A stretch of DNA of 33,580 nt from Candidatus Woesearchaeota archaeon (GTDB lineage Archaea; Nanobdellota; Nanobdellia; Pacearchaeales; GW2011-AR1). Made by a program: the position numbers and the translations under genes. The notes beneath the pieces were generated by a model. That model was given only the letters and a program-made list of their open reading frames with translations, ran no database searches and was not told the DNA's origin. The stretch lies in assembly GCA_964524525.1 (NCBI GenBank), contig CAZGCP010000001.1, positions 1 through 33,580 on the forward strand, written 5' to 3'. Positions 263 to 18,343 of this stretch are shown here, piece by piece. Numbering within the stretch: position 1 is the stretch's first letter; each line of letters begins with the position of its first letter.

Positions 263-892
263 TTAATTTTTATTAAAATTTCTTTTCTTTTTTATTATAA
301 AATAAACCAAAACAATTATTCCTAAAACAAGAATTAAAATTACTTTAAATAAATTCTCTATTGAAGTGAAAGGTGTTGGTCCTATTGAATACCCAATAAA
401 AATTAAGATTAAAGTCCATATTCCTGCTCCAAGAGAAGTATAAAAACAAAATCTTCCTAAGTGCATTCTTGAAAATCCTGCTGGAAGTGAAATTAATTGC
501 CTTACAACTGGAAAAAGCCTTCCAATAAAGGTGGTTATTTCTCCATTTTTTTCAAAATATCTGTCTGACTTCTTTAAACTTTCTTGTTTAATAAATAAAA
601 AATGCCCGTATTTTGAAACTAGCCTTTCAACACCCTTTCTACCAATAAAAAGTGCAATAGAATAGTTTATAAGAGCTCCTGTAAGGCTTCCTAAAACACT
701 TAAAAAGAAAACTAAAACAAGATCCATACTCCCTTTTTTAATTAATGAGCCTGCTGGAATTAAAATTGCCTCACTTGGAAAAGGAAAAAAAGAACTTTCA
801 ATAGTCATTCCAAAATAAATTCCAAAATAATGAAGATTTTCTATAATTAATAAAATACTCGAATAAATGCTTTGCAATAAATCAAAAACCAT
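263..892 (-). CDS. DedA-family membrane protein (SNARE-associated/VTT domain)
   Basis: 209 aa, polytopic. DedA-like core: ESSFFPFPSEAILIPAGSL...GSLTGALINYSIALFIGRKG...FIGRLFPVVRQLISLPAG. ATG at 890-892 lies 1 nt after the stop of the upstream gene. Confidence 0.75.
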   Translation of the reverse strand: MVFDLLQSIYSSILLIIENLHYFGIYFGMTIESSFFPFPSEAILIPAGSLIKKGSMDLVLVFFLSVLGSLTGALINYSIALFIGRKGVERLVSKYGHFLFIKQESLKKSDRYFEKNGEITTFIGRLFPVVRQLISLPAGFSRMHLGRFCFYTSLGAGIWTLILIFIGYSIGPTPFTSIENLFKVILILVLGIIVLVYFIIKKKRNFNKN

Positions 893-893
893 T

Positions 894-1427
894 TTACTTT
901 TTCTTTATTTGTTTTAAAAGAATTTTGAAATCAGTATAAAAAGGAATCCCTTTTATTTTAAATTTTTTAACTTCCAAAAACCAAATTCCTATTACAAAAA
1001 TTGTGCTTCCCAAATACCATAAAATTTTATGGATTAAAGCAAAAGAAGAAACATCATTCACATATAAAATTCCTAAAACAATTATTCTTGTAATATTTAA
1101 AACTAATAAGATTCCAAAAGAGAAAAGTAATGAATTAATTCTTTTTTTGCAAGAAAGATTTGGAACTGATAAATTCAAAATCAAAAGTAAAAAATAAGCA
1201 GAACCTGCTACACAAGGACCTACAATTTCCAAAGGTATTGAATCCAAAAAAATAGTTGTTCCATTTAAAGAAGTGTTATAAAAAATACTTAATATCCAAT
1301 AAACAGGATAAACAGTTAAAGGAGTAAAAATCCAATAAAAAATATACAATCCTGGAAGTGCAGAAAGAACTAAAATCAAATACCTTAATATAAAATTCTT
1401 AAAATAATTTTTTTTAAATTTTACCAT
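894..1427 (-). CDS. Compact exosortase/archaeosortase-family membrane protein (pacearchaeosortase-like), putative transpeptidase
   Basis: 177 aa with about 5 TM segments. Ordered signature: Cys (EIVGPCVAGSAY), Asn-x-x-Arg (LVLNITRIIVLG), His (ALIHKILWYLG), as in the exosortase/archaeosortase catalytic set. Sits directly downstream of two candidate substrates. Confidence 0.55.
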   Translation of the reverse strand: MVKFKKNYFKNFILRYLILVLSALPGLYIFYWIFTPLTVYPVYWILSIFYNTSLNGTTIFLDSIPLEIVGPCVAGSAYFLLLILNLSVPNLSCKKRINSLLFSFGILLVLNITRIIVLGILYVNDVSSFALIHKILWYLGSTIFVIGIWFLEVKKFKIKGIPFYTDFKILLKQIKKK

Positions 1428-1457: not shown

Positions 1458-1691
1458 TTATTTGAACTTTTTTTCTAAAGAATTATAAAATTTTTCTACT
1501 TTTTCTATTTCTGGAATAAATTTTTCTGGACAATATTCTTGATATTTCCTAGCATTTGAAATTAATTGAGGTATTTCTTTTTGATTTAAAGGTAAATCAC
1601 TTCTATTACTATCCAAATAATCATTAATCTGTGATAAAGACTTATAAATTTCTAAAAATTCTTTAGTCTCTTTATCTTTAAGGCAAATCAT
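1458..1691 (-). CDS. Small hypothetical cytoplasmic protein, translationally coupled to the upstream surface-protein gene
   Basis: 77 aa with no TM segment. Its ATG overlaps the upstream TGA (ATGA, 1688-1691). Confidence 0.45.
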   Translation of the reverse strand: MICLKDKETKEFLEIYKSLSQINDYLDSNRSDLPLNQKEIPQLISNARKYQEYCPEKFIPEIEKVEKFYNSLEKKFK

Positions 1692-3742
1692 TTTGAATTT
1701 TTATTGGAAGGTTCCTTTTCCTCTTTATTTTTTCCTTGATTTTTCTTTTTCAAAGATTTTTTCTTTTTACTTTTTTTAGTAGCAATAGAAATTATTTTTA
1801 CAATTATTAAGATTATTGCTATTATTAATAAAACATTAAGAATTGCTTCCCAATTCCAATCTTTGATTCCTTTAGATTTTTTAACTTCAATTGGAAGTTT
1901 AAATTCAGCAACTACTATTCCATCTTTTCCAATATTCCAATTAATAATTTGTTTTCCTGAAACATTTTCTTTTGATTGAAGAGTGATTTCAACATTTTCT
2001 GATTCTCCAACATCAAGAGTTATTTGTGAAGGGTTTATTGAAATTGATTCTGTCCAATTAGAATTAATATATCCTAACTCATATGTTACTGGTTCATCTT
2101 CGGGATTTGTTATTGTTACATTCAAAACAAACTCATCTCCTGATTTCCTACCTTTTTTAAGACTTGCATCAATCATGTTTGATTTTTTAACTTCATCATA
2201 GAAGTGTGCACACCATAATCCAGTAACATCAACATTTGAAGTATAAATTGCTTTTTCATCATCTACTCCTCCTTCATAAATATCTTTTTCTTCCATATCT
2301 TTATCATCATATACTGTAAATGTAATTGGGTATATTTTTTCTTCAACACCTTCAGGTATTCTTACTAATACATCAAAATTAGAACTTCCTAAGGGATTTA
2401 TTCCACTGTCAAATTCAACAACTTCACTAATTCCTAATTCCTCATTTTCTACTTTTACAAAAATCTCATCTTCTGGAATTTTATCATCTCCAATATTCCA
2501 AATTTTAGGTCTGAATTGTATTTCTGAATCACAAGGAACAAATACATCTAAATCTAAATTCTTTATAACTAAATATTCTTTTAATTTAACATTTAAATCT
2601 TTTAAGGCTGAAGTAGCAGTTTCTTCTCCATCAACATTTTCTTCTTCTGCCTTGTCTCCTTCTAACTCTCCTTTAGCAGAAATCAAAAAGGAATAATCAT
2701 CATTTGTTTCAGATAATTTTTTTGGATCTAATGTGAAAACAATTTCCAAATCCATATCTTTTCCTTTTTCTAAATCAAAATCATCTTCATTAATTTCCAT
2801 ATATCCCTCATCTAAAACACATTTATCATCTTTAATATCATATAAACATATTTCAATTTCAATATCTTCAACATCATAATTTCCTTTGTTGTCAAGTGAA
2901 GTTTCAATTTTTATTTTATCGAAAGGGTAGATTTTTGTTTCTTCTCCTAATCCTTCTTCTACTGAAAAAGTTAATTCGTCAAATACTAATTCACCAAGAT
3001 TTGAAATATCTCCTGCATATCCTTTATTATAAATAACCTCTCCTCCAGCATAATCTCCATTAGAAGAGTTTGCATTCACAATTATTGAATTTTCTCCATA
3101 TTTTAAATCATCAAAATCTGAATCAAGTTTCAAAGTAATTTCTTTTTCTTCTCCTGCAGTTAAATCAAAATCATTTTCAGAAAAATTAACATCAAATTCT
3201 CCTGAATAAGTTAAATTAATTTCAGTTAAACCTGTGTTTCCTTCATTCTTTACTGTGATTGATGTGGTTTTTCTAGTAAAAGTTGAATCTGATACTGATA
3301 AAGAAGATGATTCTGGAACACTTACATCTAAGTAAAAAACAGGATTATTATTTAAAGGTCTTAAATCGCTTTGGTTTGTAGGATTTCTTTCATAACCATC
3401 AAAAGTTATTTCTAAATTATATGAATCTGAAGGTTTATGTTTTGGAACACTTACTTCAAGGCTTATTACTCCAATAGTTCCGTTTTCTATTGAATTGAAA
3501 TTTTTTATTTCAACATTTTCCTCAGAAAAAGGGCCATCTAAAACATTTATTGAAGTAGAAAGATTATATAAATCCCAATTTGCATCTGCTTCAACTTCAA
3601 TATTTATAATTTCAGAAGTTCCGTGATTAATATTTTCCATAGCAGAACTAGATTTTAAAGTTATAGCTGCACTAACAAAACTCATAACTAAAAGTAATAA
3701 AAAAATACTTGCTATTCCTAATGTTAATTTTTTTGATATCAT
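1688..3742 (-). CDS. Secreted, C-terminally anchored surface protein, paralog A (S-layer/adhesin-like)
   Basis: 684 aa. Signal peptide MISKKLTLGIASIFLLLLVMSFVSAA. Acidic Asn/Asp/Glu-rich beta-type domains. C-terminus is SKGIKDWNWEA + TM (ILNVLLIIAIILIIVKIISIA) + Lys-rich tail. Collinear with 3801-5843. Confidence 0.85.
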   Translation of the reverse strand: MISKKLTLGIASIFLLLLVMSFVSAAITLKSSSAMENINHGTSEIINIEVEADANWDLYNLSTSINVLDGPFSEENVEIKNFNSIENGTIGVISLEVSVPKHKPSDSYNLEITFDGYERNPTNQSDLRPLNNNPVFYLDVSVPESSSLSVSDSTFTRKTTSITVKNEGNTGLTEINLTYSGEFDVNFSENDFDLTAGEEKEITLKLDSDFDDLKYGENSIIVNANSSNGDYAGGEVIYNKGYAGDISNLGELVFDELTFSVEEGLGEETKIYPFDKIKIETSLDNKGNYDVEDIEIEICLYDIKDDKCVLDEGYMEINEDDFDLEKGKDMDLEIVFTLDPKKLSETNDDYSFLISAKGELEGDKAEEENVDGEETATSALKDLNVKLKEYLVIKNLDLDVFVPCDSEIQFRPKIWNIGDDKIPEDEIFVKVENEELGISEVVEFDSGINPLGSSNFDVLVRIPEGVEEKIYPITFTVYDDKDMEEKDIYEGGVDDEKAIYTSNVDVTGLWCAHFYDEVKKSNMIDASLKKGRKSGDEFVLNVTITNPEDEPVTYELGYINSNWTESISINPSQITLDVGESENVEITLQSKENVSGKQIINWNIGKDGIVVAEFKLPIEVKKSKGIKDWNWEAILNVLLIIAIILIIVKIISIATKKSKKKKSLKKKNQGKNKEEKEPSNKNSK

Positions 3743-3800: not shown

Positions 3801-5843
3801 TTATTTTTTTATTGCTTTTTTAATATTATTATCTTCTTTTTTTAATTTCTTTTTTTTCTTTCCTTGTTTATGTGATGAAACTATAATTCCTGTAACTACT
3901 CCTACAATTGCAATTCCTAAAACAATATTCATAATAATTTTCCAATTCCAACCTTCAAACCAATCTAAAATACCTTTAGATTCTCTAACAGTTACTGGAA
4001 GTTCATAACTTGCAACAGGAATTTTATTTTTACTAATAGTCCACTCTATGACTTGGTCTCCGTAAACATCTTTTTTAGATTCAATTATTAACTGAACAAT
4101 TACTGATTCTTCAGATTCAAGTGTTAATTCAGAAGAACCTAATGAAATTGACTCTGCCCAATCAACAGTAATATTGCTTAAATCATAAGTTACTTTTTTA
4201 TCTTCTGGATTTGTTATTGTTATGTTTATAATAAATTCATCTCCTGATTTTTCTCCAGATTCAAGATCTGCTTTAATCATTTCTAATTTTGTCTGATCAT
4301 TATAAACTGTTTTACACCATAATCCTGAAACATTTATTGTTGAAGTATATGCTGGATGGTAATCTCCCATATCTTGGTAAATATCATCTAAAAAACTTTT
4401 TTCATATTCTTCATAAGGTGTAAAAACAATATCATATTCTCCTTCTTCAATTCCTTTAGGTATTTCAATTAAAACATCAAAACTTGAACTTTCCAAAGAA
4501 TCTAAATCTTCTTTAAATTCAACAATCTTACTAATATTTAAATCCTTATTATAAACTTCAATAAAAATCCCTTCATTTTTCTCTTCATCTCTTTCTATAT
4601 CCTCTTCCATTAAATTCCAGATTTTTGCATTATATTGTATTTCTGAATTACAAGAAATAGATTCCTCAATTTCTAAATTTTCAATATAAACACTTCCTTC
4701 TTTAATTTCAAAATCTAAACTAGCTGAAATACCTGTTTTGTTACCTGCAAATTCTTCCCTATCTCCTTCTTCTAAAGTTCCTTCTGCTTTTATCCATAAA
4801 GTATAATCTCCTTCAAATTCATTTTCTTCTAAAAAATCTTCACTAAGTTTAAAAATTAATTCTAAATCAATTTCATCGCTATCTTCATCTAAATCAAAAT
4901 CATTTTCATTGATTTCCATTTCATCTAAAGTTGCTATTTCATCTCCTAATTCATCAAAAATAGATGCCTCTATTTCAATATCTTCTATTTCATAATCATC
5001 TTTATCTTCAAGAGCTAATGTAAATTCTGTTCTTACTTTATCTAAAGGATAAAACTCTGCATCTTTGGCATCCCCATATCCTTCTACATATTTAAAATCA
5101 AAATCTTCTATTTCTAAATTATCATTTCTTTGTTCTTCTGTGAAATCTCTAAAAAGATTCAATGTTCCTGTGTTATGAGTTCCAGAAGAATTAGCTGTTA
5201 TAGTTATATCATTATCTCCATATTTTAAATCGCTAACATCTGAAGTAAACATTACTGTAACTTCCTTACTTTCTCCAGGAATTAAACTAAAATCATTTTC
5301 AGAAAAATTAATCCAGTTCTTTGAAGAATTAAGATTTATTGAAGTTAGATCTAAATTTCCTTGATTTTTTATTGTTATATTTTTTTTGTTTTCTCTTATT
5401 ACATCAAATTCTGGAGAAGAAACTGAAATATCTTTTGAATCTTTAATAGTTACTGAAAAAGGTAATGAAGTTGTAGTAGATTCTCTTTCTCCTCTAACTC
5501 CAATATTTCCTTTTATAACTCCTGTTTGATATTTATTAAAGGAAACTGTAGCTTGATAATCCTCTGTTATTTCTGTTCCTGAACCATTGCCTATTGTATT
5601 TTTATTAAAACTTATTTGTAATCCTTCTTGTGAAGAAGTAAAATCTGAATAACTCCAATTTAAATCCCCCTCAACTCCCCCATTTGTTAAATTAAATTTT
5701 ATTTTAAAATTTTCATCATGAGAAACTTCTTCAGGAGAATTAATTAAATTAATATCCTCTAAATCAACAGCACTAACAAAACTCATAACTAAAAGTAATA
5801 AAAAAATACTTGCTAATCCAAGAGTCATTATTTTTGATCTCAT
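3801..5843 (-). CDS. Secreted, C-terminally anchored surface protein, paralog B (S-layer/adhesin-like)
   Basis: 680 aa. Signal peptide MRSKIMTLGLASIFLLLLVMSFVSAV. C-terminus is SKGILDWFEGWNWK + TM (IIMNIVLGIAIVGVVTGIIV) + KKKKKLKK tail. Shares blocks with paralog A (NFSENDF, DLKYG.N.I...ANSS, GLWC, GDEF..N.TITNPED). Confidence 0.85.
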   Translation of the reverse strand: MRSKIMTLGLASIFLLLLVMSFVSAVDLEDINLINSPEEVSHDENFKIKFNLTNGGVEGDLNWSYSDFTSSQEGLQISFNKNTIGNGSGTEITEDYQATVSFNKYQTGVIKGNIGVRGERESTTTSLPFSVTIKDSKDISVSSPEFDVIRENKKNITIKNQGNLDLTSINLNSSKNWINFSENDFSLIPGESKEVTVMFTSDVSDLKYGDNDITITANSSGTHNTGTLNLFRDFTEEQRNDNLEIEDFDFKYVEGYGDAKDAEFYPLDKVRTEFTLALEDKDDYEIEDIEIEASIFDELGDEIATLDEMEINENDFDLDEDSDEIDLELIFKLSEDFLEENEFEGDYTLWIKAEGTLEEGDREEFAGNKTGISASLDFEIKEGSVYIENLEIEESISCNSEIQYNAKIWNLMEEDIERDEEKNEGIFIEVYNKDLNISKIVEFKEDLDSLESSSFDVLIEIPKGIEEGEYDIVFTPYEEYEKSFLDDIYQDMGDYHPAYTSTINVSGLWCKTVYNDQTKLEMIKADLESGEKSGDEFIINITITNPEDKKVTYDLSNITVDWAESISLGSSELTLESEESVIVQLIIESKKDVYGDQVIEWTISKNKIPVASYELPVTVRESKGILDWFEGWNWKIIMNIVLGIAIVGVVTGIIVSSHKQGKKKKKLKKEDNNIKKAIKK

Positions 5844-5907: not shown

Positions 5908-8900
5908 TTAATCGTTTTTAATTATTTTTCCAGTTTTATTATAACCTTTTTCAGTATTAATCTTATAAATGTAAGTTCCACTTGGTCCAGTTATATTAAA
6001 TCTCTTAGTTCCTTTAACATCATTCTCAATTAATCCTTTTTCCAAAGAATTTCCATTTAAATTATAAATATTAATTGAACCATCTTGAGGTTTTTCAAAA
6101 TTATATTTAATATTAAAATCTCCATCAGTTGGATTAGGATATGCTTTAACAGAATAATCTTCAAAAGAGGATTTGTCTATTGATTCATATGTTGTATCAC
6201 TATAAACTGTTTTAGATATAGAGGTGTCATTACCTGCTTTATCTCTAGCATAAATTTCTATAGAGTTCTCTCCTTGTTGATAACCTGCTCCTGTTGTATC
6301 TACTAAATTGTTAATTCCCCAAGATTTTCCATTTACTGTATACCAAGCTGTGTCTAAGTTCTCTTCAATTATTTCCCAAGCCAAATCATTGTCATTCACT
6401 GTCTCTCCTTGAGGTTTATTTATTGAAATTGTTGGTTTTGTATTATCATAAATCCAGTTTCTTGTAATAGAAGAATCATTTCCTGCTTTATCTGTAAAAT
6501 AGTATTCTATTGTATTTGTATCTCCCACCATTCCTTCTAAAGTATCTCCATTACTTTGTTCCCAATCAATTTTATTTCCATTTAATTTTATATATGAATT
6601 AAATGGGTCTATTCTTGAAACTGCATCTGAAACATTGAAATCATTTATAGGATGTGTAGAATAAACTCCTTCTTTATCTGGATGATTTACTTTGAGAGAA
6701 GGTGCAGTATTATCATAAATAAAGTTAATTGTTCTATTTGAATGATTTCCTGCAATGTCTTTTGCATAAATTTGTACTTGGTGTTCTCCTTCAATTTTTG
6801 GAACTTGAATTGTATCTAAATGAGATTTTTTTGGGGGGAAAACTTCATTAACTCCTACATTTATATTTTGTTTTGAATAATCATCTAATTTATACCATAA
6901 AGTATCTAAAAAATTGCTATTATTTGAGCTTGTATCTGAAACTGTAAAAATAAAATCTTCAAGAGTATTTTTATTATAAGAGGAATTATTTTGAAGATTG
7001 AAATTTATTTCAGGATTTTGATTATCTTTATTTGGATTTCCAGTAACAAATCGATTAGAACTTGCAGAATAGGATAAATTAGGATTTCCTACACTATCTA
7101 TATTCCATTCAAGAAAAGTCATGTCTATAAAATTCCCTGTTCCTTCATTATAACCATAATTATATTTTACTTCAATTTTTGAATTACTTAAAGAGTTAGT
7201 ATTTATTTCTGAATCATTTGTTGGATTGAAAAAGAACCAATTATTTGCATCTAGAGGATTATCTTCTGTTAAAATCCCATTAAACCATTCATCACTTGTA
7301 GTATTGTGAACACTATAAATAGGAAGGTTAAATCTTCTTAATGTTTCTAAAGATTCTGGATTTTGTGAAAGAGTTGAACTATATTCTTCTTGAGTTATAT
7401 CTGAAAGGTTTCTTATTCCTTTTGAATTTATTTCTACTTGTCTTGCATAATTTTTGCTGTTCCATACTTCACCAGGAGTAGAATTTTCAGGAATTGAATC
7501 TGATTTATCAATTGAAGCTATGTTTCTAACCCAACTTTGTTTTTCATCATTGGTTAGACTAGTCCAAAATCTTCCTGGAAGATAAGATTTATTTCCTTCA
7601 TCAATATATTTTAAAATCATAGCCTTGTCTATAGGAGTAATAACTCCATCGCCATCAACATCTGCTCTATCATGTGCTCTTGAGATTTCTCCTTCTAATC
7701 TTGGTTGCCCATCTAAATTTATTGCATATTTTGGATTAGGAACATTTTGGCCTAATAAATTATTTATAGAATCTACATCTGCTCGGGTTACTTCTCCATC
7801 ATTATTCAAATCACCATTACCATAACTTGAACTAACATGAGTCTCAGATTGTTTAAATGGATTAATTAACCAGTGTTTATCAAAACCATTAGAAGAATTA
7901 CGATATACAAAATTTTTCTGTGTAGTAACTGTGTTTCCAGCTGAATCTGTGAAAAAGTATTCAATTGTGTTGGTTCCTTCAAGAAGATTCTCTAAAGTAT
8001 CTCCATTGCTTTGTTTCCAATCAATTTTGTTTCCATTTAATTTTATACAAGAGTTTATTGAATCTAAGTAAGTATCTGAAATATTGAATTGATTAATCGG
8101 TCTTTCTAAATATAAACTATCATTTTTTGGAGAACCTACCTTTAAAGAAGGGTAAATTGTATCATAAACAAAACTCTTTGTTATGGAAGTATCATTTCTA
8201 GCTATATCAGAAAAATAATATTCTATTTCATTTCTTCCTTGTCTAGGGTTTAAAACATTTCCTTGAATTGAATCCCAATTATGAATTGTATCATTGTTGA
8301 ATCTTATGAAAGAATTTGTTGAATCTGTTCCAGAAATTGGATCAAATACATTAAAATTATTAAGAGGCCTATAAGAATAATGCATTCCATCTTGTACTGA
8401 ATCTACATTAAAAAAAGGAGCTGTTGTATCATAAACAAAATTTCTTGACATTGAAGAGTTATTTCCTGCTGAATCTGTAAAGAAATATTCCATTTCATTT
8501 AGCCCTTCTATGGGATTCAATATGTCTCCATTACTGTTTTTCCAATCCAAAGTATCTGAATTAAATCTTATGAAAGAATTTGTTGAATCCAAGTAAGTAT
8601 CTGAAACACTGAATTGATTAGTTGGCTTTTCAGAATAGATTGTGTCGTTAACTGGAGTAAGTGAATTTAAATTTGGAGAGATAGTGTCATAAACAAAATT
8701 TCTTGATATTGAAGAGTTATTTCCTGCTGAATCTGTAAAAAAGTATTCTATTGTGTTCCTTACATCTCCAATAGGATTTAGTGTTGCTCCATTGCTATTT
8801 TCCCAACCGCTTGTGTCAATATCAGAACCATTTAATCTTATGAAAGAATTTGTTGAATCCAAGTAAGTATCTGAAATAGTGAATTGATTAGTAGGTTTAT

Positions 8901-9630
8901 ATGAATAATACATCCCATTTTCAGGAGTGGTTACACCTAAATTTGGTTTTGTTGTATCATAAACAAAATTATTTGTTACAGAAGTTTCGTTTCCCAAAGT
9001 ATCAGTAAAATAATAATCCATTTCATTTTTTCCTTCTATTGGATTCAATGTGTCTCCGTTGCTGTTTTCCCAACCAATTGTGTTAACATCAGAAATATTT
9101 AATCTTATGAAAGAATTTGTTGAATCTATTACAGAAACTGCATCTGATATACTGAAATTATTAATTGGTTTTGTTGAATAGTGATTTTTGTTTTGAGGAC
9201 TTCCTATTGTTAATTCAGGAGAAATATTATCAAAATTAAAATTAATTGTTGTATCTTTTACATTTGAAGAATCATCAACAAAATAATATTGTAAAGCATT
9301 CAATCCTTGTTGAGGGTTTAAAGTTTCTCCATTTATAGAATCCCAATTATAAGTTGTATCATTGTTGAATCTTATGAAAGAATTAGAAGTATCTATTTCT
9401 GAAGAATCATCTGAAACAGTAAATTGATTAATTGGCTTTTCAGTATAAACCGAATCATTTACTGGAGAAGTTATTTCTATTTGTGGAGGTATGGTATCTT
9501 GAGCACTTAATTCTTTTGGAGTAGCTAATAAACTAAGTCCTGCAAAAGCTAAAGGTAGAACTGCATTTTTCTTAATTCCCTCCCCTAATCTCTTAAATAA
9601 GCTTACCATTTTTTTCTTCCCTGTTATCAT
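5908..9630 (-). CDS. Giant secreted repeat protein: about 9 Ig-like repeats, a dockerin-like Ca-binding pair, a unique central region and a T9SS-type C-terminal sorting-like domain
   Basis: 1240 aa. Signal-like N-terminus ...AVLPLAFAGLSLLATPKELSAQD. ~86-90 aa repeats (DT..P.L....P.N...YS.KP.NQF..SD...DSTNSFIRLN...W.NSNGD.LNP.EG.N..EYFFTDSAGN.SS..RNFVY). GDLNNDGEVTRADVDSINNLL and DVDGDGVITPIDKAMILKYI. C-terminus YPNPTDGDFNI...INIYNLNGNSL...GTYIYKI...KTGKIIKND. Confidence 0.85.
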   Translation of the reverse strand: MITGKKKMVSLFKRLGEGIKKNAVLPLAFAGLSLLATPKELSAQDTIPPQIEITSPVNDSVYTEKPINQFTVSDDSSEIDTSNSFIRFNNDTTYNWDSINGETLNPQQGLNALQYYFVDDSSNVKDTTINFNFDNISPELTIGSPQNKNHYSTKPINNFSISDAVSVIDSTNSFIRLNISDVNTIGWENSNGDTLNPIEGKNEMDYYFTDTLGNETSVTNNFVYDTTKPNLGVTTPENGMYYSYKPTNQFTISDTYLDSTNSFIRLNGSDIDTSGWENSNGATLNPIGDVRNTIEYFFTDSAGNNSSISRNFVYDTISPNLNSLTPVNDTIYSEKPTNQFSVSDTYLDSTNSFIRFNSDTLDWKNSNGDILNPIEGLNEMEYFFTDSAGNNSSMSRNFVYDTTAPFFNVDSVQDGMHYSYRPLNNFNVFDPISGTDSTNSFIRFNNDTIHNWDSIQGNVLNPRQGRNEIEYYFSDIARNDTSITKSFVYDTIYPSLKVGSPKNDSLYLERPINQFNISDTYLDSINSCIKLNGNKIDWKQSNGDTLENLLEGTNTIEYFFTDSAGNTVTTQKNFVYRNSSNGFDKHWLINPFKQSETHVSSSYGNGDLNNDGEVTRADVDSINNLLGQNVPNPKYAINLDGQPRLEGEISRAHDRADVDGDGVITPIDKAMILKYIDEGNKSYLPGRFWTSLTNDEKQSWVRNIASIDKSDSIPENSTPGEVWNSKNYARQVEINSKGIRNLSDITQEEYSSTLSQNPESLETLRRFNLPIYSVHNTTSDEWFNGILTEDNPLDANNWFFFNPTNDSEINTNSLSNSKIEVKYNYGYNEGTGNFIDMTFLEWNIDSVGNPNLSYSASSNRFVTGNPNKDNQNPEINFNLQNNSSYNKNTLEDFIFTVSDTSSNNSNFLDTLWYKLDDYSKQNINVGVNEVFPPKKSHLDTIQVPKIEGEHQVQIYAKDIAGNHSNRTINFIYDNTAPSLKVNHPDKEGVYSTHPINDFNVSDAVSRIDPFNSYIKLNGNKIDWEQSNGDTLEGMVGDTNTIEYYFTDKAGNDSSITRNWIYDNTKPTISINKPQGETVNDNDLAWEIIEENLDTAWYTVNGKSWGINNLVDTTGAGYQQGENSIEIYARDKAGNDTSISKTVYSDTTYESIDKSSFEDYSVKAYPNPTDGDFNIKYNFEKPQDGSINIYNLNGNSLEKGLIENDVKGTKRFNITGPSGTYIYKINTEKGYNKTGKIIKND

Positions 9631-10125: not shown

Positions 10126-10740
10126 TTAAAATAAATCTTTAAGATTAATAACTTTAGAACTATCTAAATCTAATCTGGGGCAAGCAGTGTTTATCCATGA
10201 ATCTATTTTAGAAAAATTCTCTAATTCATTAAAATTTAAATTATTTGCAATAAAAAAATAAACCTCTTTGTCTTTAATTTTATCTTTTAATTCTAAGGCT
10301 TTTTTAATTCTATTTTGTCCTGGTTTTGTTGATATTAAAATCCCTATTTTCTCGGAATTTAAATAATTCAGGTAAGAAGTTTTCTTTTTTGCTTCAAAAT
10401 TTTCTATTTCTTTTTTAGAAATCTTTTTCAAATTATAATTATCAAAAATAAAAACAGGTTTTTTTGTTTCATAAGCCAATGAAATTCCGTGAAATTTTCC
10501 TGAAGAAATTAATAAAATTACTTCTGTTTTTTCAGAAATAGAAGGTTTGGAACAACCTAATACTTGTGAAAAATTTAATATGTTATGAGAATCAGAAAGG
10601 TTTTTTTTAATATCTTTTGCAATGTCTTCATATTGAATAGAATAAAAAATAGAGAGATTTTTCTGAATCTTTTTTAATTGAGAAATTTTAGATTTATCTA
10701 AATGTTTATTGATTTTGCAAGGCACAAATAATTTTTTCAT
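10126..10740 (-). CDS. dph2: Dph2-like 2-(3-amino-3-carboxypropyl)histidine synthase (diphthamide biosynthesis), N-terminally short form
   Basis: 204 aa. Aligns by eye to the middle and C-terminal domains of archaeal Dph2: QVLGCSKP, LLISSGKFHGISLA, KIGILISTKPGQ, WINTACPRLDLD. Lacks about 85 N-terminal residues. Confidence 0.6.
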   Translation of the reverse strand: MKKLFVPCKINKHLDKSKISQLKKIQKNLSIFYSIQYEDIAKDIKKNLSDSHNILNFSQVLGCSKPSISEKTEVILLISSGKFHGISLAYETKKPVFIFDNYNLKKISKKEIENFEAKKKTSYLNYLNSEKIGILISTKPGQNRIKKALELKDKIKDKEVYFFIANNLNFNELENFSKIDSWINTACPRLDLDSSKVINLKDLF

Positions 10741-12053: not shown

Positions 12054-12434
12054 TTAGAAAGATAATTTCTATAAGAATAGTTTTGTAATGGACTTATTTT
12101 GAAAATATAATTTCTGAAAGGTTTGTTTTTGTAGTGTATCTTTTTTTTGAGAAGATTTCTCTAGGTGGAAATTGATTTTATAAAGTATCTTTTTTGAAAA
12201 GATTTCTCTAGGCAGAGGTTGGTTTTGTAGTGTATCTTTTTTGAAAAGATACATGGGGATGCCCGGATTTGACAAAAAATTCTTTTGTAGGAATGAATTT
12301 TTAGTTCGTCCGTCTTTCCAATGTGATATTCGGAAATCCGAACGAAACCGCAAGCACTTCAAATCATTTTTTATAGAAAAGATTTCTCTAGGCAGAGGTT
12401 GGTTTTGTAGTGTATCTTTTTTGAAAAGATACAT
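12054..12434. repeat. Degenerating array of ~45-49-nt units in the tRNA-Pro trailer. The best units carry a perfect 9-bp hairpin.
   Basis: Unit anchors 'gtatc' at 12136, 12185, 12232 and 12412, with weaker units from 12054 and 12091. Consensus is gtatcttttttgaaaagatttctctaggcagaggttggttttgtagt. Hairpin gtatctttt-ttg-aaaagatac at 12232-12252 and 12412-12432. Confidence 0.8.
12196..12272 (-). repeat. Distal copy of a 77-nt direct repeat. Includes an 18-nt copy of the tRNA-Pro 3' end (12255-12272).
   Basis: 12196-12272 is identical to 12376-12452 (offset 180 nt). On the tRNA strand it reads TCAAATCCGGGCATCCCC followed by 59 nt of trailer. Confidence 0.9.
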
Positions 12435-12452
12435 GGGGATGCCCGGATTTGA
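12376..12452 (-). repeat. Proximal copy of the 77-nt direct repeat (tRNA-Pro T-loop/3' acceptor plus trailer)
   Basis: Identical to 12196-12272. The 12435-12452 part belongs to the intact tRNA-Pro. Confidence 0.9.
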
Positions 12453-12507
12453 ACCGGGGTCATGAAGTCCCAAACCTCATAGGCTAACCAGGCTACCCCA
12501 CATCCCC
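12435..12507 (-). tRNA. tRNA-Pro (anticodon UGG), no intron, CCA not encoded
   Basis: Minus strand: GGGGATG TG GGGT AGCCTGGTTA GCCT A TGAGG TTTGGGA CTTCA TGAC CCCGG TTCAAAT CCGGG CATCCCC. Perfect 7-bp acceptor, 5-bp anticodon and T stems, G37, discriminator A at 12434. Confidence 0.9.
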
Positions 12508-17677: not shown

Positions 17678-18343
17678 TTAAAAAGGATCATATAATTTTA
17701 ATTTAGCTCCAATTGAAAATCCTCCAGAAGGCAAATTCGCATTTTCATCTTTCAAAGAAATAAAAGGAGAAAATTTTAAAGATAAATTAAAAATTTTATT
17801 TTTATTTAAATTAATTTCTTTTAAAACATCATATTCTAATAAACCAAAAAACCCATAATTCGAAGAGAGTCTTGTATTTGGATCTTCTTCTGAAAAAAAA
17901 CTTTCTTTTAGTCTAGCATAATAAGCCCCAAATCCAAAATGAAATTTTTCTTCTTGAGGGGGTTTATTTAAAAAAAGGAAATCATTAATTGAAGCACTAG
18001 CCCTAAAGTAATTTAAACAAGCACCAGATTCATACCTATTTGATCCTTTTGCAGGTTTACTATCATAAAAAATACTTGTTTCTATATCTCCTATTCTTTT
18101 AATGCCTTTTGTAAAAGATAATTCTAAACCTGGAAAAATTCCATAAGAATTATTCAATCTTGAATCATTAAATCTAAAAACACTCACTCCAGAAGAAAAA
18201 GTATAATTTCTCATTCCATAAACATTTCTTTTATGTACTTGAGAATTAGTATTAACAAATAAAGAAGTGAGGAAAGTTGTAATTAATATGGATTTTTTTA
18301 ATTTGTTAGAAAGTTTTTTCATAATTATTGTAGTATTAGGCAT
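17678..18343 (-). CDS. Secreted protein with an 8-strand amphipathic beta pattern (outer-membrane beta-barrel-like), function unknown
   Basis: 221 aa. An alternative ATG at 18322 gives MKKLSNKLKKSILITTFLTSLFVNTNSQ, a signal-like peptide. Alternating hydrophobic strands: YTFSSGVSVFRF, GLELSFTKG, IETSIFYDS, CLNYFRASASI, FHFGFGAYYARL, YGFFGLLEYDV, FNLSLKFSPFISL, GFSIGAKLKL. Terminal residue is Phe. Confidence 0.6.
   Translation of the reverse strand: MPNTTIIMKKLSNKLKKSILITTFLTSLFVNTNSQVHKRNVYGMRNYTFSSGVSVFRFNDSRLNNSYGIFPGLELSFTKGIKRIGDIETSIFYDSKPAKGSNRYESGACLNYFRASASINDFLFLNKPPQEEKFHFGFGAYYARLKESFFSEEDPNTRLSSNYGFFGLLEYDVLKEINLNKNKIFNLSLKFSPFISLKDENANLPSGGFSIGAKLKLYDPF

Follow-up and report, generated by a model that had tools for sequence, protein, structure and literature searches.

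A Bacteroidota-type C-terminal sorting domain on a putative surface protein of a DPANN archaeon

The tail domain and the protein that carries it

The window analysed here is a whole contig of 33,580 nucleotides (CAZGCP010000001.1 in assembly GCA_964524525.1; contig C1) from an archaeal genome of 617 kb in 122 contigs that is 80.7% complete with 1.2% contamination. On the reverse strand, the window encodes a protein of 1240 amino acids (aa), denoted P0001, which ends in a domain of the type A C-terminal domain (CTD) family from type IX secretion systems (T9SS). The closest public relative is labelled Candidatus Woesearchaeota, and the presence of a pacearchaeosortase likewise points to the Pacearchaeota/Woesearchaeota part of DPANN.

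Judging by profile scores, the tail is a genuine T9SS type A CTD family member, far beyond chance. With the curated cut-offs of 23 bits for TIGR04183 and 27 bits for PF18962, TIGR04183 reaches 41.1 bits against the whole protein and 48.6 bits (E = 5.7e-13) against the isolated tail, where the alignment covers profile positions 1–72 of 72 and ends at residue 1239 of 1240, that is, at the extreme C-terminus; PF18962 reaches 31.4 bits against the tail. A six-frame search of the genome finds the tail at 5914–6144 (47.9 bits, E = 6.5e-13). The claim of a T9SS CTD on a protein from an archaeal genome had been made in the initial annotation of this DNA, by a model reader that saw the sequence alone, and is borne out by both profiles; the range given there (5908–6150) takes in the stop codon (5908–5910), and the last 80 residues of the open reading frame (ORF) are exactly the sequence that was quoted.

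The YPNP motif, the central Gly, the GxY motif and the near-terminal Lys are all present in the tail of P0001. For comparison with solved structures, we used a tail profile that combined this tail, those of three close relatives from archaea and that of P0011, a sequence from the Logan metagenomes that is more distant and has a Bacteroidota-style signal peptide. This profile matches the Flavobacterium johnsoniae type A CTD structures 8glj_D (E = 1.2e-8) and 8glk_D (E = 5.5e-5), with the 8glj_D alignment extending to the common terminal KTGKIIK, and the homology indirectly supports a seven-stranded beta-sandwich fold for the tail. The F. johnsoniae type A cargo tails, solved with SprA-PorV (8GLJ and 8GLK; PMC10994853), resemble the tail of P0001 in family, ~75-aa length, extreme C-terminal position, the YPNP, G and GxY motifs and the K-x-x-x-K end, KTGKIIK being identical to 8glj_D; as in Bacteroidota, the type A tail is found on a protein with an N-terminal signal peptide, here signal-peptide-like by inspection. 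Unlike Bacteroidota T9SS cargo, P0001 belongs to an archaeal host in which SprA, PorV and PorU were not detected, and the identity of its tail to bacterial tails is at most ~40%.

The gene and its parts are as follows, from the 5' end of the gene to the 3' end.

5908–9630, reverse strand: gene for P0001, a putative secreted surface protein of 1240 aa (ORF and translation; orthologs of 1320 and 1140 aa)
9502–9630, reverse strand: signal-peptide-like N-terminus, residues 1–43, with a Lys-rich start, the hydrophobic stretch AVLPLAFAGLSLLA and then LSA/QD (by inspection)
7876–9498, reverse strand: six tandem ~90-aa immunoglobulin (Ig)-like repeats, HYR/OmpL47/Big_13-like (NF047446, 45.1 bits; PF02494, 27.6 bits)
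7603–7815, reverse strand: dockerin type I-like Ca-binding loop pair, residues 606–676 (PF00404, 29.5 bits; cut-off 22.9)
6916–7560, reverse strand: domain of ~215 aa, residues 691–905, with no Pfam match
6169–6915, reverse strand: Ig-like domains, Glucodextran_B/Big_3_4/Big_13-like, residues 906–1154 (PF09136, 30.9 bits; cut-off 27)
5914–6144, reverse strand: T9SS type A CTD, residues 1164–1239, ~76 aa (TIGR04183 and PF18962 above cut-off)

P0001 thus appears to be a large Asn/Ser/Thr-rich, adhesin-type surface protein of a Pacearchaeota/Woesearchaeota-like (DPANN) archaeon, probably exported by Sec, in which a signal peptide would be followed, from the N-terminus to the C-terminus, by seven Ig-like repeats, a dockerin-type Ca module, the ~215-aa domain, further Ig-like domains and the T9SS type A CTD. 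The signal-peptide-like start is conserved in the orthologs; in P0001, the 19-aa hydrophobicity window remains below 1.4. The composition of the protein (32% Asn, Ser and Thr taken together, one Cys, and a lack of hydrophobic segments beyond the N-terminus) agrees with a glycosylated protein outside the cell that would have no membrane anchor of its own. The repeats carry the anchor P.N.F.[VI]SD at residues 66, 155, 246, 336, 422, 511 and 994, and the seventh copy (residues ~975–1065) stands apart from the six tandem ones; within residues 906–1154, the Big_13 and Big_3_4 matches are weaker than that of PF09136.

By its type I dockerin-like Ca-binding loop pair, with PF00404 above the cut-off, P0001 recalls the cohesin–dockerin systems, from which it differs in that the dockerin is located mid-protein rather than terminally and in the lack of a detected partner: a cohesin (PF00963) encoded in the same genome was considered for this role, and none was found in the 80.7%-complete assembly. 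Comparison of the sequences by reading indicates that the domain at residues 691–905 recurs in P0009, a paralog of 709 aa, and in a CTD protein of 476 aa from the relative G009, in which dockerin-like D-x-D-G loops can be seen by eye and Pfam detected the tail only. In this domain, again by eye, P0009 has a Cys (GEWECGRF), and both P0009 and the G009 protein have a His (AHAINGV and GHGMNAF, respectively); P0001 has neither residue there, which hints at an inactivated enzyme-like fold.

Gene neighborhood and integrity of the contig

The gene order around P0001 is the same in three independent assemblies, namely, the one analysed here, GCA_964462045.1 and GCA_054921295.1. In the first half of the common order, Spt5, L11, L37ae, a prefoldin or small unassigned ORF, SepF and Dph2 follow one another, and in the second half, a membrane protein of 128 aa, the CTD protein, the PACE-CTERM pair, the pacearchaeosortase and DedA. 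Full-length orthologs of P0001, of 1320 and 1140 aa, occupy the same position in the two other assemblies, such that the P0001 gene stands at the head of the S-layer/pacearchaeosortase block in all three. This conservation indicates that both gene junctions are real and, for practical purposes, excludes a chimeric assembly; a mis-assembly joining bacterial and archaeal DNA, against which the initial annotation had cautioned, is contradicted by the reproduction of both junctions. The GC content is even along the contig (23–32%) and lies at 26–30% for the P0001 gene and its flanks, and the neighboring genes are archaeal, encoding L11, Spt5, FtsZ, SepF, aIF5A, L1, P0, P1 (ending in GLSALFG), L3, L4, a TYW1-like radical SAM enzyme and Dph2.

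The block downstream of the P0001 gene consists of four genes.

3801–5843, reverse strand: PACE-CTERM putative S-layer protein 1, encoded directly downstream of P0001 after a 64-nt gap (NF033506, 236.4 bits; cut-off 110)
1688–3742, reverse strand: PACE-CTERM putative S-layer protein 2 (NF033506, 250.6 bits; cut-off 110)
894–1427, reverse strand: pacearchaeosortase (NF033505, 215.8 bits; cut-off 80)
263–892, reverse strand: DedA/UptA-like membrane protein, the last gene of the conserved block (PF09335, 83.6 bits)

The P0001 gene and the two PACE-CTERM genes are separated by gaps of ~60 nt, and both PACE-CTERM proteins end in a transmembrane helix and a Lys-rich tail. The DedA/UptA-like protein scores 120.6 bits against NF052604, below the cut-off of that model, and holds the same position in both other assemblies. 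P0001 has no NF033506 match, and its last 200 aa lack the hydrophobic window present in both PACE-CTERM neighbors; since hydrophobic segments are missing everywhere beyond the signal-peptide-like start, P0001 is not among the substrates of the pacearchaeosortase. The pacearchaeosortase/PACE-CTERM system (NF033505 and NF033506) therefore offers only a partial parallel: it shares the conserved block with the CTD gene and likewise sorts surface proteins by their C-termini, but its signal is a transmembrane helix with a Lys-rich tail, whereas P0001 has no C-terminal hydrophobic segment. The two neighbors, initially taken for paralogs of the CTD protein, are both NF033506 S-layer proteins, paralogous to each other. 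The accompanying suggestion that two kinds of C-terminal module coexist in this cell holds, with the CTD on P0001 and, on the neighbors, PACE-CTERM, which is read by the pacearchaeosortase (894–1427).

Distribution, selection and the search for a type IX secretion machine

In a sample of 301 genomes of the phylum, 300 of which are at least 90% complete, the tail is above the cut-off in 41 genomes (28 of the 225 genera), single-contig genomes included; among the 41 nearest relatives, 10 have it. The tail is a recurrent, patchy component of this archaeal phylum, occurring there without a detected T9SS. An exhaustive HMMER search of 1.84 billion representatives yielded only three close relatives of the tail (61–80% identity), all with the same architecture, and beyond these, a continuum at 30–45% identity in which many of the inspected sequences have Bacteroidota-style signal peptides; word-index protein searches gave genus-level homologs only. 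When species-representative genomes were scanned with a profile built from 5 sequences, the best non-archaeal tails were 25–40% identical over the whole tail, with higher values for short segments only, and came almost exclusively from Bacteroidota, together with Kapaibacteria and Chlorobiota.

In a phylogenetic tree of 12 archaeal and 47 bacterial tails, the P0001 tail groups with support (97) with the tails of its orthologs and its paralog only. Tails from archaea occupy at least five places in the tree, the supported branches are compatible with a single origin, and no donor emerges. Since the nearest bacterial tails are only 25–40% identical, no recent donor can be named. A bacterial origin of the tail is plausible from these sequence comparisons, neither recent nor traceable. 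Horizontal acquisition, as proposed in the initial annotation, is to this extent plausible and stays unproven, given the low identity of the bacterial tails, the native composition of the P0001 gene and a tree that, set against bacterial CTDs as had been suggested, names no donor and is compatible with a single old origin.

The genome also holds the remnant of another CTD gene. On contig C112 (1291–1467, forward strand; L002), directly after rtcB, lies a decayed tail (30.9 bits) with two TAA stops. At the corresponding site, a 705-aa gene is present in a sister genome together with an intact CTD protein of 323 aa, and the match of the remnant to the 3' end of the gene for the latter (78.6% identity at the DNA level) implies that ~2.9 kb were lost in the genome analysed here.

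The tail of P0001 is under purifying selection. In pairwise comparisons of three orthologs, at dS of 0.6–1.0, dN/dS of the tail is 0.14, 0.23 and 0.11, against 0.26–0.29 for the whole gene, and in two comparisons the tail has the lowest dN of all regions, while in the remaining one its dN exceeds the minimum by at most 0.002. The tail is also the part most similar to the paralog P0009, with 66% identity compared to 41–51% for the other regions, and it is from the low dN/dS and this highest identity, taken together, that selection is deduced. The reading frame is intact in the three genomes and in the paralog. Across nine archaeal lineages, G1194 and G1219 are retained in all nine, Y1221 in eight and YPNP in six to seven. 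In the bacterial system, the conserved type A tail motifs determine the fold and make no contact with SprA or PorV; the sole possible exception is the near-terminal Lys, a residue of functional importance in T9SS transport that reportedly plays its main part at another point of the process (PMC10994853). Given that the motifs specify the fold and that they are retained, the fold appears to be kept in the archaeal tails.

The T9SS components for which the initial annotation recommended a search were not detected: profile searches for PorU, PorV, SprA, GldL and PorP/SprF found no match in this 80.7%-complete genome, and the score of GldM, 13.5 bits against a cut-off of 180, is at chance level. 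As a positive control, the SprA search recovered its target in a Flavobacterium genome with 2807 bits; the PorU, GldL/GldM and PorP/SprF searches were run without such a control. SprA was likewise negative in the sister archaeal genome, and neither SprA nor PorV was above the cut-off in any of the 301 genomes of the phylum, with one partial match of 25.9 bits for PorV in the genome G051. The presence of the domain in 41 of these 301 genomes, with SprA and PorV above the cut-off in none, shows that the domain by itself is not evidence of type IX secretion, so that naming a protein 'T9SS type A sorting domain-containing protein' misleads in these genomes. Furthermore, we know of no outer membrane in archaea of this kind.

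Two sets of genes were considered as possible partners of the tail and rejected. The first is an ORF of 221 aa in the window (17678–18343, reverse strand), 8 kb from the CTD gene, with a signal-peptide-like start, an all-beta prediction (9 strands) and a C-terminus resembling that of outer membrane proteins (...LKLYDPF). Searches with this ORF gave no family match, an empty result against PDB sequences and, with Foldseek, only non-significant matches, small outer membrane barrels among those; its AlphaFold model from three sequences is all-beta and unreliable, with a predicted local distance difference test (pLDDT) score of 49. The ORF is confined to the genus (3 of the 41 relatives), with homologs of 60–69% identity only in two close relatives, and where the context is readable (L114), the homologs lie in the slot between aIF5A and FKBP. 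As a partner of the tail, this barrel-like ORF was discarded, being genus-restricted and absent from the syntenic slot in the third assembly, which has the CTD protein.

The second candidate comes from G051, a closed genome of 1.3 Mb from the same class that carries four CTD proteins. Adjoining genes in this genome (L115:769–2777, reverse strand) encode a 303-aa protein with a weakly PorV/FadL-like N-terminus (NF033710, 25.9 bits, below the cut-off) and a lipoprotein of 366 aa that bears a Tat signal and a caspase-like His/Cys motif (PF00656, 17.1 bits). This pair was not retained as a general partner of the tail, since only G051 among the 301 genomes has the 303-aa protein, and neither protein has a homolog in the genome analysed here.

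Possible roles of the tail

The interpretation we favor, and which we consider reasonably probable, is that P0001 is a Sec-exported, adhesin-like surface protein in which the tail serves as a folded retention or interaction module rather than as a secretion signal. Given that a T9SS machine was not found in the cell, the tail would not be an outer-membrane export signal. It may instead have been kept as a stable C-terminal beta-sandwich that most likely holds or orients P0001 non-covalently at the cell surface, for example, against the downstream S-layer proteins or their glycans; alternatively, its function could be that of a binding module. The initial annotation had already considered that a beta-sandwich might be reused for adhesion or anchoring, an option favored here too by the preserved fold motifs, the purifying selection and the failure to detect T9SS genes.

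Several observations weigh against this interpretation. The AlphaFold model of the C-terminal 656 aa, built from four sequences, is poor (pLDDT 42; the tail is modelled with 7–8 strands at pLDDT ~42–60), so that the fold of the tail has to be deduced from homology. The near-C-terminal Lys is kept in seven of the nine archaeal lineages, which could hint at a retained signal function and is the sole hint, in the comparison of the motifs, of more than maintenance of the fold. The S-layer/sortase adjacency is absent for the CTD genes of more distant relatives; as a general rule for CTD genes, this adjacency had to be abandoned, since it holds only within the genus, and a specific link between the CTD and the S-layer is weakened accordingly. 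Finally, the completeness of the genome, 80.7%, limits the absence of T9SS genes.

An unlikely alternative is that the tail continues to work as a signal for sorting or attachment, such that archaeal machinery unrelated in sequence to the T9SS would recognize it, remove it and fix P0001 to the envelope, in analogy to attachment by PorU/PorV. The strong purifying selection that acts on the tail would be compatible with such a function, as would the retention of the near-terminal Lys, important for T9SS transport, and the location of the gene within the main envelope-biogenesis block; at a distance of 8 kb lies a gene for a predicted all-beta protein that has a signal-peptide-like start and ends in Phe, and one closed relative has a weakly PorV/FadL-like ORF adjoining a caspase-like lipoprotein. 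Among the candidate partners, however, none co-occurs with the tail. The 221-aa ORF does not occur outside the genus (3 of 41 relatives), with a model of pLDDT 49 and no significant fold match, the PorV-like ORF of G051 is a singleton in 301 genomes without a homolog here, and a PorU-type sortase was not found in this genome. We regard as quite unlikely the more specific proposal that the tail is an address tag, which machinery without detectable similarity to the T9SS in sequence would read and perhaps cleave before handing the protein to the S-layer, in an archaeal counterpart of the bacterial attachment step.

It also seems improbable that P0001 is aimed at a partner or host cell, with the tail, or the adhesin as a whole, engaging the Bacteroidota-type outer membrane or the T9SS of a bacterial neighbor. 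DPANN archaea are commonly episymbionts, and this background, like the adhesin-like architecture, the dockerin for which no cohesin was found in the same genome, and the origin of the nearest non-archaeal tails, all from Bacteroidota and related groups, could be accommodated by such a role. To our knowledge, however, the hosts of DPANN archaea are themselves archaea. There is no sign of a specific bacterial partner, and the bacterial homologs are at most ~40% identical. Moreover, the T9SS recognizes the tail from the periplasmic side (PMC10994853), beyond the reach of an external protein. Engagement of the machinery or surface of a bacterial partner, the other option in the initial annotation, thus finds nothing to support it.

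It is very improbable that the tail stems from a captured bacterial gene and is now a relic without function. CTD genes do decay in this lineage, as exemplified by the C112 remnant with its two stops and ~2.9 kb lost, and the distribution of the domain among relatives is patchy; however, dN/dS of the tail is 0.11–0.23 at dS of 0.6–1.0, no part of the protein is better conserved, and the frame is intact in three genomes and in the paralog. An artefact, whereby a bacterial fragment would have been mis-assembled or mis-binned into an archaeal contig, has a negligible probability: the fragmented metagenome-assembled genome (122 contigs) and the Bacteroidota-like A-Q motif at the end of the signal peptide would fit it, but both junctions are repeated in GCA_964462045.1 and GCA_054921295.1, GC is uniform over the gene and its flanks, and single-contig genomes of the phylum carry the domain too.

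The domain family itself is well known, and it has been annotated in archaea in passing; for instance, the same domain annotation appears on an archaeal secreted protein from another lineage and with another cargo, as a table entry only, with no domain analysis (PMC6461988). In our full-text literature searches, no publication addressing T9SS tails, whether in DPANN or in other archaea, was found. What is new at the present locus is the occurrence of the tail on a 1240-aa repeat/dockerin/Ig protein that heads a conserved S-layer/pacearchaeosortase block, along with selection values for this domain, its counts across the phylum compared with those of SprA and PorV, and the dated loss of a second CTD gene. 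The T9SS CTD is treated as a hallmark of Bacteroidota-type outer-membrane secretion, and here it is conserved, selected and widespread in archaea without a detected machine, which raises the question of what the CTD fold does on its own. In uncultured DPANN archaea, the tail would mark candidate surface or adhesion proteins, which are likely mediators of cell–cell contacts.

Two observations concern other parts of the window. At 12069–12473 (reverse strand), the translation carries NPGIPMYLFKKDTLQNQPLPREIFS twice, which reflects a direct DNA repeat rather than a gene. The Dph2 homolog (10126–10740, reverse strand; 204 aa) matches positions 74–280 of a 308-position model with 119 bits, under the equivalog cut-off of 203, and looks N-terminally truncated; a short form of Dph2 (206 aa) is likewise called in both sister assemblies.

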